NCBI GenBank assembly: GCA_951406725.2
Contig: OX597842.1
Span: forward strand, 620,001 to 684,000
Source: Octopus vulgaris
Lineage: Eukaryota
Direction of reading: 5' to 3'
Length of the DNA stretch: 64,000 bases
A model generated the notes under the pieces. That model was not told the origin of the DNA, did no database searches, and worked only from the letters and a program-made list of their open reading frames with translations. The position numbers and the translations under genes are program-made. Below, piece after piece: positions 1,240 to 7,950 of the stretch (its first letter is position 1; each line of letters begins with the position of its first letter).

Positions 1240-2501
<1,262 letters not shown>

Positions 2502-2595
2502 GGGTTTTCAAATCAAATCAGTTGTGGGTAGTTTGAACCTTTTTATAGTTTCGTAGTAGTGGGTGAGGAGGAAGTGAGACAGAGAGAAAATATGT

Positions 2596-2657
<62 letters not shown>

Positions 2658-2861
2658 ATTTATATCTGAGAGTGAAGAAGTGTTATTTCCGTTGGTCTGC
2701 TGGACCCCCTGTGGTTTTATAAGAACTTTGGCTGTCCATTTCAATGTCACTGAGTGTGTGTTGTGCATAGGTTGGCCTGGCAAATGTCATTTGGGGTCAC
2801 ACTTTCTATGATCATTCTGTGGAGGTGTGTGTGTGTGTGTGTCTGTGTGTGTCTGTGTGTG

Positions 2862-2909
<48 letters not shown>

Positions 2910-3416
2910 TGTGTGTGTCTGTGTGTTTGGAGAAGGGGAGAGAGACAAAAAGAGAAAAGGGAAAATAAAAATAATAATAATAAAAATAAAAAATTAAAAA
3001 ATAAAAAAAATAAAATAAAAACAAAAAATAAAAAATAAAATAAAAAAATATAAAGAATAAATAAAAATATAAAGAATAAAAAATAAAAAAATAAAAATAA
3101 AAATAAAAATAAAAATAAAAATAAGGGAGGAAGTGGAGAAGAAAAATATTTTTGTGTGTTGATATTTATACCAACACATATATATACACACACACAGACT
3201 TATACATAAAATATTTGAAAAAACCTTTTTATCGGTTCAAAATGAACAACCAAATTATACCATCTTGAAAGTTGTATGTCATAGGAAAGTTAAAATTAAA
3301 GTGACAATTAAAGGGTAAAGATGGAAGTGAATTATAAAGATAATAATATAATATGATGTATATAACAGGCAATACACACACACAGATTTTTCCTTCAATG
3401 TATGTTGAGTAAAGTT

Positions 3417-3790
3417 TCAGCCATTTAATTTGGGGGAGAACTTAGCTATGAAATGTTTTTCCATATTCCTCCTGAAGGGGGTGTCATTCTTCGGACACTT
3501 GTAGAAGGGAAATATCTTAAATTTTCCTTCTCCACATGTAGCTAGGTGTGTGCTTAGTGGTATTTTGCGTAGTTCTTCCTGCCGAATATGTTGTCGGTGG
3601 ATCCTGGCTCGCTGGCACAAAGAATTACCAGTTTCTCCTACGTAATTCTCCTTGCATGTGGGGCAGGTTATGCAGTATATGACGTTCTGCGTCTTGCAGT
3701 TCATATCTGCATTTACTTTGAATATGACACCATTTTTAAATCTTATCTCTCTGTTGCTCTCTATGTATTTGTAGGTGGGGTTGCTGCATT
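3417..3790 (-). CDS. PLE GIY-YIG endonuclease domain, out of frame with the RT by one base near 3790
   Basis: NVIYCITCPTCKENYVGETG...R...H...E...N motif. One added base at TGT GGG AAT would restore a C-x4-C-x2-C linker (CGDGRCGxC) and fuse it to the RT. Confidence 0.88.
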
Positions 3791-5731
3791 CCCACATCTA
3801 CCATCTCCGCACTCTTTTGCAAAGAATTCCGTTTTAGTTTCTGAAGAGAATTTCGCTCTTGTTAGGTGTTTTTTTAGGTTTTTGTCCTGTCGTCTACTGT
3901 TTTTTATGCTATATTTGTTTAATATGTTTTTCATTTTGGGGCTCTGTAAGGCTATTGGTAGGTTTGAATGTATGGTTTGGAAGATGTTGGTAACTCCAGG
4001 GTTGTGTGTGTTTATAAAAGGGATAGTGTTTTCTTTGTTTTTTGTTTTGGGTGTCCTGAGTTGTGTGATGTCTAGTTTTAATGCTCTTGTGATTCCATTT
4101 TCTATTAGTTTAAGGGGGTATTTTTGCTCTAGGAGGAAGCTTTTGAGTTCATCTAGTCTTATTAATCGTATTTGTGAATCAGTTACTATGCTACATATTC
4201 GTCGTGCCATACTATATGGGATGTTTCTTTTTGTGTGGGATGGGTGGCAGGAGTGGAAATTTAAGTATTGATGTGTGTCAGTTTTTTTGTAGTGGATGTC
4301 TGTTGTGACGATGGAGTTGTGTATTTTGATGTTGATGTCTAGGAAGGGAAGTTCGTTGTGGCTGGTATCTATTGTGAAATTGATAGATGGGTGCAGCGTA
4401 TTGAGGATGTTGTGGAATGTTTGTAGGTCCTCTTCTGATCTGTTCCAAAAGATGAAACAGTCATCGAGGTAGCGTTTCCACTTTTTCTTGATGTCTTCTC
4501 TGAAGTCGTGTTCGAAGACTTTCCCTATTTCGTCATATAGTTTTTTCTCCAGGAAGCCCATCACTAGGTTGGCATATGAAGGTGCGAATTTTGTACCCAT
4601 AGCCGTGCCTTTTATCTGTCGGTATGTCTTGTTGTTGAATGAGAATGTGTTTTCTTCTAGTATTAGTTGGGTGGCTTGGGTGATAAAGTTTGTCTTGAAG
4701 CGTTCATCTATAAGTTCTCTGTATTTTTCTATTGATTGTTTTATAGCTTCTAGACCTAGGGTGTGTGGTATGTTTGTGTATAGATTTGTGACATCAAAGC
4801 TTGCAAGTATGGTGTTTTTCGGGACTGTATTTGGAATGTGTGTGAGGAAGTCTATGTCATCCCTTATGTAGCTTGGAATCTGTGGGCATAGAGGTTTGAG
4901 GAGTATATCTATGAAGTGGCTTAGTTGTTGTGTTGGTGCCTGGGGTCCTGCCACTATTGGTCTCATCGTGAGGTCTGCAGGTCTTTGTACTCTTATGTAG
5001 TGGTTCCTCTGTTCCTTTATGGCTCTCTGTATTTCCGAGCTTTTATGAATTTTAGGTAATCCATAAAAGTTGCTTTCTTTGGTTTGTGAGTTGCATAGAT
5101 AATCTTCCTCCTTATCTGTAAAGGAGTCCTGATATTCATTGACTAAAGTTCTAATTTTTCTTATTGTTGTTTTCTCCGGTGGTGTTGGTTCCTCTTTGTA
5201 ATATGTCTGGTTGTTCAGTAACTCTAGTATCTTTTCTTTGTAGTAATCTGTGTCCATAATTACTATTGCTCCACCTTTGTCAGCTTCTTTTATAACGATT
5301 GATTTGTCATTTTTCAGTTTTTGTAGGGCTTGCTTTTCTTCTCTGCGGAGATTCTGTTTGCATTTGTGTGTGTGAAGAGGGAATTTGGATATTGTTTCTA
5401 TGTACGTGTCAAGGTGTTTGTCACTTCCCTTGTAAGGGGTGAAGTGGGATTTTTTTCTTATGATTGAGTTATCTTCTGTTTCTTTATTTTCAAAGAATTC
5501 CATAAGGCGGAGGTAGCGGCTGAAGTTATCTATGTCAGTTTTTAGTTCTATGAGGTTTGGAGTGGGTGTAGGTGTAAATTTGAGGCCTTTTAGTAGTAGG
5601 TTCATTTCATATTCGTCAAGTTCTCTTTTAGATAAGTTTATTATTTTGGGGTCTATGTGTTTTGGGAGTTCATCCGGAATTTTTGGTGTATTGGGTCTGG
5701 AGTATGGTTGAAGTATCCTCTCCCTAAAAAA
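3761..5731 (-). CDS. PLE reverse transcriptase ORF2 (frame open upstream of the annotated ATG at 5605 to the slippery site)
   Basis: IINLSKRELDEYEMNLLLKGLKFTPTP, ADKG, YGLPKIHK, RPIV, SFDVTNLYTNIP, GTAMGTKFAPSYANL, RYLDD, LPFLD and SCHP motifs typical of Penelope RTs. Confidence 0.95.
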   Translation of the reverse strand, partial: FFRERILQPYSRPNTPKIPDELPKHIDPKIINLSKRELDEYEMNLLLKGLKFTPTPTPNLIELKTDIDNFSRYLRLMEFFENKETEDNSIIRKKSHFTPYKGSDKHLDTYIETISKFPLHTHKCKQNLRREEKQALQKLKNDKSIVIKEADKGGAIVIMDTDYYKEKILELLNNQTYYKEEPTPPEKTTIRKIRTLVNEYQDSFTDKEEDYLCNSQTKESNFYGLPKIHKSSEIQRAIKEQRNHYIRVQRPADLTMRPIVAGPQAPTQQLSHFIDILLKPLCPQIPSYIRDDIDFLTHIPNTVPKNTILASFDVTNLYTNIPHTLGLEAIKQSIEKYRELIDERFKTNFITQATQLILEENTFSFNNKTYRQIKGTAMGTKFAPSYANLVMGFLEKKLYDEIGKVFEHDFREDIKKKWKRYLDDCFIFWNRSEEDLQTFHNILNTLHPSINFTIDTSHNELPFLDINIKIHNSIVTTDIHYKKTDTHQYLNFHSCHPSHTKRNIPYSMARRICSIVTDSQIRLIRLDELKSFLLEQKYPLKLIENGITRALKLDITQLRTPKTKNKENTIPFINTHNPGVTNIFQTIHSNLPIALQSPKMKNILNKYSIKNSRRQDKNLKKHLTRAKFSSETKTEFFAKECGDGRCGNAATPPTNT

Positions 5732-7260
5732 TGGGTTGTGTTGTTACGTCTCCAAATTCCATTTTCAGTTCTTAGGTTTTCTTGTAGTTGGGGTGGTCTG
5801 TGTGGTCTGTATGTGTTGTTTTGTCTTTGGTAGTTGTTTTCTTCCCATCTTCTGTGTTGGTTGAGCCAATATTTATTACTGGGGTTCAAGTTTCTTTGTG
5901 GGTAGGTGGATGGTTCATGTATTGTGTTTGTATTGTATTGATAGTGGGAGTTGTTTTTTATCCATCTTGGAAATTTGTGGGGTTGCATGGGGTTGGTGTT
6001 TGTGTGGTTTCGATTTCCTTGATGTTTGTTGTGGGTTATGTGTTGGTTTCTATCCATTTGTATATTGTTCCATGTGTGTGTCCCTTTAGGGTGTCCAGTG
6101 TTATGTGTTGGTGGTTGTTCATATTCTATTTGTTCTCTCCAAGTGTTATAGGTTGTTGGTTGTATGTATTGTGCTCGTCTTGCTGTTGGTGTGTTTGTTT
6201 TTGTGGGGTTTTGGGTTGATGGTTGTCTTTCATATTTTGTGTATCTGTTAATTGGGGGGTTCGGCAGTGTAAGGAGCGGGATTTTGGTTTGTGTTTGGTA
6301 GGGCTTATTTTGATGTCTGGGAGTCCAGTATGTTTGTGGTGTTAGTTTGTTGTATCTATTCATTTGTTTTGGTAGTTTTTTTGTCTTCATAATTGATTCT
6401 TCACCATAGTTCTTTTCATAGTTTAAAAACCACTCATGTTGTTTGGTCCACATAAATCTGGATCTTTCCTCCTCTCGTTCGGTATCCTCTTTCCATAATT
6501 GTTGTAGTTTTTCTTTGTTTTGGTTATTGTTCCTTTCTGTTATCTCGGCCATTATGACGGTATCGATTGTTTTAATCTTATCTTCCTGGTGCGTGCTTCG
6601 TATTTGTAGAAGGGAAATTTCCGTTTCTAGTCGGCAGAGGGCTAGGTTTGCACGTATTGTTGTTTCTTCTAGTGTTTCACCCCTTATTTCTTTGATAAGA
6701 AATTTTCTAGGGAGTATTGGGTTCTTCAAGTCCCGCCAGTTTTGATATATGTTGGCTATGTTCTTACAGCGTATGTTTTTCCAATAAGCATATTTGCGTT
6801 GGTTTAGAAGTTTGTTCCAGTCTTGGGGTTTTGAAGGTTTTTCTTGGTTTGTGTCAGTTTTTGTTTCTTCGTCATTTGTTGTCCTTTGTGATTGGGGTAG
6901 TCCCGCCAGAAGGTTTGTGTTATCAGTTGTGTTTGTTTGATTATTTTTACAGAGAATATTTTGTGTTTGGATTGTATTTATTGTTAAAGCAATGTTTGCA
7001 AAGAGCGTATCAATTTTTGAGAGAAGTGAATTTAACTTACTACAGGTTTCTGTGAGTAGATCTTCCATGCTTCTGGTATTTCCCTGTTGAAGATGTGCTT
7101 CTGTCTTGTTTATTTCAGCATTGCATATTTTGCAGATTTGTGTTAGGTCTTCTGCGTGTTTGGTATAAGCCTGTTTGGGGTCTGGTTCTGTTCCATTCCT
7201 TTCAATATTTTCTGTATTTTTGGTATCTTCTGTTTGTGGATCTGATATTAGTCCATCCAT
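5653..7260 (-). CDS. PLE ORF1: coiled-coil-like N-half and N/Q/T/P/H-rich low-complexity C-half, function unknown
   Basis: Uninterrupted ~540-codon frame inside the element, same strand as the RT. First in-frame ATG at 7260; the track starts at TTG 7281. Confidence 0.8.
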   Translation of the reverse strand: MDGLISDPQTEDTKNTENIERNGTEPDPKQAYTKHAEDLTQICKICNAEINKTEAHLQQGNTRSMEDLLTETCSKLNSLLSKIDTLFANIALTINTIQTQNILCKNNQTNTTDNTNLLAGLPQSQRTTNDEETKTDTNQEKPSKPQDWNKLLNQRKYAYWKNIRCKNIANIYQNWRDLKNPILPRKFLIKEIRGETLEETTIRANLALCRLETEISLLQIRSTHQEDKIKTIDTVIMAEITERNNNQNKEKLQQLWKEDTEREEERSRFMWTKQHEWFLNYEKNYGEESIMKTKKLPKQMNRYNKLTPQTYWTPRHQNKPYQTQTKIPLLTLPNPPINRYTKYERQPSTQNPTKTNTPTARRAQYIQPTTYNTWREQIEYEQPPTHNTGHPKGTHTWNNIQMDRNQHITHNKHQGNRNHTNTNPMQPHKFPRWIKNNSHYQYNTNTIHEPSTYPQRNLNPSNKYWLNQHRRWEENNYQRQNNTYRPHRPPQLQENLRTENGIWRRNNTTHFLGRGYFNHTPDPIHQKFRMNSQNT

Positions 7261-7326
7261 TCTGATGTCATGTACATCCAAATATATGTATCGGAAGGTT
7301 TGGAGATGATGTACAGGTATTATATA

Positions 7327-7950
<624 letters not shown>

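Follow-up and report, generated by a model that had tools for sequence, protein, structure and literature searches.

A putative programmed -1 ribosomal frameshift between ORF1 and reverse transcriptase in an endonuclease-bearing Penelope-like element of Octopus vulgaris

A Penelope-like element (PLE) lies on the minus strand of a 64,000-nucleotide stretch of the Octopus vulgaris genome (contig OX597842.1, positions 620,001 to 684,000), referred to here as the window; coordinates are counted from its first letter. PLEs are the sisters of telomerase reverse transcriptase (RT). This element is Neptune-like and bears an endonuclease (EN+), and its sequence makes it very probable that RT and endonuclease are expressed by programmed -1 ribosomal frameshifting. 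A minority of ribosomes would slip back one base at an in-phase U_UUU_UUA heptamer close to the end of the first open reading frame (ORF1), giving an ORF1-RT-endonuclease fusion of about 1280 amino acids (aa) in intact copies, while most would terminate 23 codons past the slip site and release ORF1 alone. The slip would presumably involve tandem slippage of tRNA(Phe) and tRNA(Leu), as in gag-pol of human immunodeficiency virus 1 (HIV-1), and would leave ORF1, likely a structural RNA-binding partner, in excess. The underlying frame offset is real, family-wide and deeply conserved, and is not an error.

The slip site and its conservation

The features of the junction are as follows.

5653..7260, minus strand: ORF1, 535 aa from the first ATG (its presumed start), with a helical core and a low-complexity N/Q/T/H tail
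5725..5731, minus strand: slippery heptamer U_UUU_UUA in the -1 phase, kept in phase by 32 of 38 sister copies
5722..5724, minus strand: GGG codon directly 3' of the heptamer, as in HIV-1
5653..5743, minus strand: ORF1/ORF2 overlap, the -1 frame opening past TAA 5746-5744 and ORF1 stopping at TAG 5655-5653
3761..5743, minus strand: ORF2, in the -1 frame, with IINLS (5644), GLKF and DKG motifs, the RT core and the start of a Cys linker

The minus strand at 5734-5719 reads CAT TTT TTA GGG AGA (HFLGR) within the 557-codon stop-to-stop frame of ORF1, and the six T residues (5731-5726) and the following A (5725) form a T_TTT_TTA heptamer that fits the X_XXY_YYZ phase within the overlap. Behind its TAA, the -1 frame has four sense codons (QHNP) and then reads FFRERILQ...IINLSKRELDEYEMNLLLKGLKFTPTP on into the RT, through which it stays open for 660 codons in all. 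The ORF1 stop lies 23 codons past the Leu codon of the heptamer, and the conserved IINLS motif begins 13 codons ahead of the first in-frame ATG, which is at 5605. The string TTTTTT[A/G] occurs once in the 3.6 kb coding strand of one intact copy, exactly at the junction, so the slip site is more than a chance occurrence. A preliminary description, drawn from the letters of this DNA, had claimed the phased minus-strand heptamer (5731-5725), a -1 frame stopped four codons upstream and then open into the RT, and a conserved NLS motif ahead of the first RT ATG, all of which were confirmed; its comparison of the site with the U_UUU_UUA and GGG of HIV-1 (PMC4373837) also stands.

A search of the same genome gave 148 candidates, 40 of which were scored; 7 kb was retrieved for 38 of the 39 others, and the 39th (L022) also has T6. 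The heptamer is in phase in 32 of these 38 sister junctions, while three have lost one G directly after it and three have a mutated run; T7 or a fused junction is found in 0 of the 38. T6 is therefore the consensus across genomic copies, as had been set beforehand as a test. Eight of 24 listed sequencing runs (from eight studies) were examined as assembled contigs, with their RNA status guessed. Single contigs from seven runs span the junction without a gap, and the eighth gives short pieces only, with no indel at the T run. The spliced transcript that the preliminary description had named as a refutation does not appear: the contigs of the eight runs contain neither a splice joint nor an indel at the slip site. 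Such contigs show that the sequence is present, not that it is expressed.

The preliminary description had cautioned that other single bases are lost in the window. This is true near 3788 but does not apply to the junction, which has the family form. The loss at 3788-3789 parts the endonuclease from the RT and is private to the window copy: all 35 copies with a main alignment across 3788 have the extra base, as do the short-read contigs, and in three copies (L031, L039 and L041) RT and endonuclease form one continuous 775-codon ORF. The loss is either a real mutation or an assembly error. Homopolymer indels are frequent among the sister copies.

Seven other families in the genome (B to H) have in-phase T6 as their majority form. 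The run lies 66 nt before IINLS in families B, E and F (ORF1 stops 20, 10 and 11 codons past the Leu codon, respectively), 75 nt before it in D and G (10 codons in both) and 87 nt before it in C and H (23 codons in both); family C is old and decayed, and family H has U_UUU_UUU followed by ACG. The RTs of B, D, F, G and H are 44–57% identical to that of the window family (over 275–500 aa); family E was measured over 32 aa only, and family C was not included. The slip-site flanks are dissimilar between families and the spacings differ, so heptamer and phase are conserved well past the range of similarity in the flanking sequence. In one family H copy (L360:2120-2145), an A7 run just upstream of U_UUU_UUU may be another slippery spot.

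Scanning metagenome and genome contigs yielded 127 loci, which would be host DNA inside microbial assemblies; 53 have the N-terminal motif, an RT match and 330 nt upstream. In-phase T6 is found behind an ORF of at least 100 codons in 11 of these 53, and behind a broken ORF in two more. In an RT tree built with FastTree from unnamed relatives only, all seven rows from outside this genome in the clade of the window element (support 98) have the T6 site. In a second Cys-linker clade, three of four rows have T6 and the fourth has U_UUA_AAC, and none of the 24 rows of the clade lacking the linker has a slip site. The U_UUA_AAC locus (L206:3640-3660) has a 775-codon ORF1, with the coronavirus-type heptamer in phase and the ORF1 stop directly after it. 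Three members of a second, distant clade (L191, L200 and L218; about 31% RT identity) have the same T6 site 10–14 codons from the stop, and their ORF1s, 643–844 codons long where complete, are not matched by the ORF1 profile described below. PLE RTs also turn up under bacterial-genome or symbiont-protein labels (L249-L295; P0009, P0015, P0036 and P0109), and these are likely to be host DNA in microbial assemblies.

A profile built from nine ORF1 cores matched 1214 cluster representatives at E≤0.001 (clusters at 50% identity). Among the best 150 of these 1214, 86 have a full core and a tail of at least 50 aa, and the other 64 were dropped. Phe-Leu occurs within the last 45 aa in 63 of the 86, where the remainder of the tails would predict about 3%, and other pairs are rarer in the same tails (YL 0, FV 1, FI 5, LF 6 and FF 8). 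Gly directly follows Phe-Leu in 25 of the 63. No RT motif was found among the best 150 matches. Long fused ORF1-RT proteins were searched for and none was found, which is weak evidence. The best 120 RT homologues are all shorter than 900 aa where 1357 were permitted, partly due to query selection. Mytilus gene models carry the same traces, with PFFRT in the RT frame and HFLG in ORF1. Heptamer and phase, whose conservation in related PLEs had been proposed as a check, are thus kept in all seven clade rows and in seven families, and Phe-Leu recurs in 63 of 86 ORF1 ends. With no T7, no splice joint and deep conservation, the sequence data support the earlier proposal of an ORF1 product accompanied by a minor ORF1-RT-endonuclease fusion made by -1 frameshifting.

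Alternative readings and the search for a stimulator

Several observations weigh against programmed frameshifting. The run evidence consists of contigs of guessed RNA status, from which rare variants are dropped. Phe-Leu is absent from 23 of the 86 ORF1 tails, some of them truncated or broken and all judged at the protein level only. Three relatives (L169, L182 and L250) have in-phase U_UUU_UUG, an unusual slip site with G at the Z position. Four family H copies (L356-L359; 4 of 102 matches) carry a single ORF1-RT-endonuclease frame of 1199–1214 codons. T6AG, a pyrimidine run followed by AG, can be read as a splice acceptor in the window and in most families. Finally, the 80 nt downstream of the heptamer fold no better than shuffled sequences (z -0.47; +0.05 past the spacer), z falls below -2 in only one of 16 junctions, and the sole long-range helix, disrupted in 15 copies, begins within the ribosome footprint, with the base directly following the heptamer. 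In the four fused copies, the T run is unaltered and each has one extra A in the A run beside the slip site; the three that share an identical insertion have no substitution in common. They look like independent slips or assembly errors rather than a spreading fused lineage. If real, they would mean that fusions arise without taking over.

Translation of RT could instead start at the ATG at 5605, through reinitiation or internal initiation, as has a precedent in L1 ORF2, with the overlap being incidental. The closeness of this ATG to the ORF1 stop (47 nt) and the lack of a visible stimulatory structure at the junctions speak for such a route, but a start at 5605 would lose conserved IINLS, the first ATG shows no conservation (lying 3 to 112 codons past the motif in ten close junctions), and Phe-Leu in 63 of 86 ORF1 ends would be left unexplained. 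In 12 of 15 junctions, no in-frame ATG lies ahead of IINLS. This route seems very unlikely.

It is just as improbable that RNA polymerase stutters on the T run, adding a U and so producing a minority of fused transcripts. It is indeed a homopolymer that is conserved, and an RNA stimulator is not visible, but stuttering needs no codon phase, and the phase is fixed (FL in 63 and FF in 8 of 86); reverse-transcribed U7 RNAs should also have yielded T7 copies (none among 38), and L206 has U_UUA_AAC at the equivalent place.

Still less credible is an intron joining the front part of ORF1 to the RT, with T6AG as its 3' splice site. The acceptor reading noted above and the conserved introns mentioned for PLEs in a figure legend of PMC8557442 would allow it, but all three consensus-like donors in ORF1 are in phase 1 where joining to the RT requires phase 2, and the five phase-2 GTs are poor donors. 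Furthermore, no AG follows the run in family H, L169, L191, L200 or L250, AG is impossible in 20 of the 63 proteins (judged from the residue after Phe-Leu), and no contig of the eight runs has a joint at the slip site. That a single-ORF element was misassembled or has decayed, as the private loss near 3788 and the common homopolymer indels might suggest, has a negligible probability and is excluded by sister copies and read contigs: young, nearly identical copies have T6, as do short-read contigs from several organisms, and the identical offset recurs in seven other families and in other hosts.

If programmed frameshifting is retained, the stimulator remains to be considered. The preliminary description had seen no strong hairpin by eye, and folding agrees with it. 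The downstream sequences of four further families also fold no better than shuffles, and a simple H-type search gave pseudoknot candidates in five of 16 junctions, none convincingly above shuffles (best 0.05). The hairpin or pseudoknot 5–9 nt downstream that characterizes -1 frameshift sites was not found, and RNA structure was rejected as the stimulator on the basis of the folding, the broken helix and the lack of a convincing pseudoknot. The GGG after the HIV-1 heptamer supports efficiency (PMC4373837), and in the window family a slippery site in a GGG context, acting with little help and at low efficiency, is favoured.

The distance to the ORF1 stop suggests another possibility for the relatives. 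In the 63 proteins, Phe-Leu is never fewer than 10 residues from the C-terminus, and it is exactly 10 residues from it in 20. A stop within 10 codons would be expected in 25% of shuffled junctions, or more at the rate of 7.6% per codon seen further on, and the stop-distance labels change at least 21 times on a quick tree; on these grounds, the sequence data make it unlikely that the 10-codon floor is due to chance. The 10-codon class is clustered (18 of 26 rows in one clade), and the window family sits in another part of the tree, among rows of 14 to 28 codons. Weaker clusters lie near 20–23 and 29–32 codons, but these bins were picked post hoc and kin share distances, so there is a hint only of periodicity. 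In Escherichia coli reporters, -1 slippage in trailing ribosomes peaks with the slippery heptad 9 codons before the stop (Smith et al., 2019, PMC6815119), and 10 codons would suit the larger 80S ribosome. The position of the stop also tunes frameshifting in SARS-CoV-2, via a different route (PMC8168617). In relatives with a stop at 10 codons, a ribosome queued behind a terminating one would be the likely stimulator, and by analogy such a queue fits the group that includes families D, E, F and G. The 23 codons of the window family are not a plain fit for a single queued ribosome, the stop of L206 directly after its heptamer is contrary to the floor, and the floor could alternatively reflect a functional basic C-terminal tail. 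It is possible, if rather doubtful, that a large EN+ PLE clade uses a structure-free -1 frameshift stimulated by such a queue at the ORF1 stop, with the stop held at 10 codons (one 80S length), 20–23 and 29–32 codons corresponding to two and three lengths, and the window family (23) as a two-ribosome case.

Anatomy of the element and its ORF1 protein

The rest of the element is made up of the following parts.

7321..7442, minus strand: 5' pseudo-long terminal repeat (pseudo-LTR) remnant, a 122-nt direct repeat of the 3' end (2380-2501), adjoining a (TA)n tract
3417..3797, minus strand: remaining Cys linker and GIY-YIG endonuclease, in another frame (Pfam GIY-YIG, E 5.4e-07)
2380..3416, minus strand: 3' untranslated region (UTR) harbouring internal microsatellites, and 3' pseudo-LTR that ends in (TA)n

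The element is bounded by the 122-nt direct repeat (7442-7321 and 2501-2380) and seated in (TA)n, that is, it has pseudo-LTRs and a (TA)n target. One sister copy (L039) has a longer 5' pseudo-LTR remnant than the window copy, and loose ends of short-read contigs at 7442 run on into 3' UTR sequence. The RT (Pfam RVT_1, E 2.9e-10) is of PLE type, with GLKF, DKG, YGLPKIHK, GTAMG and YLDD all located, and a GIY-YIG endonuclease (Pfam, E 9e-06) closes the intact 775-codon ORF of L039; the Cys pair and His residues of its CCHH motif were recognized by eye. The linker, CX2-5CxxC with a long spacer, is of Neptune/Naiad rather than Nematis type in a by-eye comparison with rows of Fig. S2 of PMC8557442. 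Neither a pattern search nor Rfam found a canonical hammerhead core in the pseudo-LTR of this family (window 2380-3416; L039, L041 and L151), rearranged hammerheads lying outside the search, and the Rfam scan gave microsatellite noise only; hammerhead cores are present in relatives L169, L171 and L172. The one ORF that canonical EN+ PLEs have is replaced by two overlapping ORFs as the family form. The element also differs from Athena/Terminon elements, which lack a fused endonuclease and attach to telomeres, as its GIY-YIG domain is fused to the RT and its copies are scattered inside many contigs. Taken together, motifs and layout point to a Neptune-like EN+ PLE.

The (CA)n and T-rich microsatellites at 2500-3200 in the 3' UTR belong to the mobile unit, and in older copies the 3' region is longer and partly duplicated. 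Copies L037, L040, L043 and L044 are 5'-truncated with inverted 5' segments, structures that are typical of PLE insertions.

ORF1 has a conserved helical core (about aa 130–290) followed by the N/Q/T/H tail. From substitutions common to at least three copies, omega was 0.27 for aa 1–130, 0.54 for aa 131–290 and 1.3 for the tail, compared with 0.16 for the RT and 0.28 for the linker and endonuclease, values obtained from small counts by a simple counting method; singleton substitutions are approximately neutral. Judged from these ratios, ORF1 is a real gene, the front part of which is under purifying selection. AlphaFold gives the core long helices (pLDDT 78.6). ORF1 matches no Pfam family and has no Foldseek match at E≤0.001, the best VIA hits (Z 9.4) are to generic helical bundles, and the best Atlas score (0.78) is a lead only; fold assignment was therefore dropped. 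The closest named protein, at 92% identity, bears an Octopus sinensis label, and a search of viral contigs found no relative. By analogy with other retroelement ORF1 proteins, ORF1 may bind RNA and oligomerize.

Relation to known systems and significance

A frameshift-separated ORF1 with a pseudoknot is the arrangement of rotifer Athena/Terminon elements. Canonical EN+ PLEs have a single ORF according to the abstract of Craig et al. (2021, PMC8557442), in keeping with the preliminary description, but the legend to Fig. 1 of that paper states that a frameshift with a pseudoknot can separate PLE ORF1 (“often separated” in the preprint). Neptune may be among the clades marked with a frameshift in that figure; the accessible part of the supplement has no entry on frameshifting. 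The surprise is smaller than first thought because this legend already has a frameshift-separated ORF1. What appears to be new is an EN+ PLE with an HIV-type slip site and no RNA stimulator, ORF1 frameshifting in PLEs being itself already in print. A literature search that did not extend to key rotifer papers and Arkhipova 2006 found no account of a slippery heptamer in EN+ PLEs.

The window element resembles the frameshifted-ORF1 PLEs of that legend in having a coiled-coil-like ORF1 upstream of the RT and probably joined to it by a frameshift, but it has an endonuclease, is interstitial and has no pseudoknot that could be found. Compared with the Neptune group as outlined in PMC8557442, the element has a conserved ORF1 set apart by a -1 offset rather than included in a single ORF, and no canonical hammerhead core was found in the window family. 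Unlike the element here, a killifish Neptune has two ORFs that do not overlap, and the part of PMC12602865 consulted mentions no frameshift. The element shares with HIV-1 gag-pol (PMC4373837) the U_UUU_UUA heptamer with a GGG Gly codon and the placing of a structural ORF in frame 0 and the RT in frame -1; unlike gag-pol, it is a non-viral retroelement with neither downstream stem-loop nor protease, and its ORF1 shows no relation to Gag in Pfam and fold searches. As in the collision-stimulated -1 frameshifting of E. coli (PMC6815119), the heptamer would act without RNA structure, and the peak at 9 codons is close to the floor and mode of 10 seen here; those were synthetic bacterial reporters, whereas this is a natural eukaryotic site known from sequence, with 23 codons in the window family.

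A gag-pol-like two-protein strategy would be a testable answer to how the enzymes are expressed in many EN+ PLEs, which are usually drawn with a single ORF. It would bring to light an overlooked ORF1 family of over a thousand clusters, and would imply that annotation of RT ORFs in this clade misses the true N-terminus and that the site is spanned artificially in gene models, as in the Mytilus proteins. The hundreds of natural, structure-free slip sites with a sharp floor in stop distance would provide a panel for studying collision-programmed frameshifting in eukaryotes. If the collision model is true, these PLEs would be a natural eukaryotic case of such frameshifting, in which RT output is tied to ribosome load.

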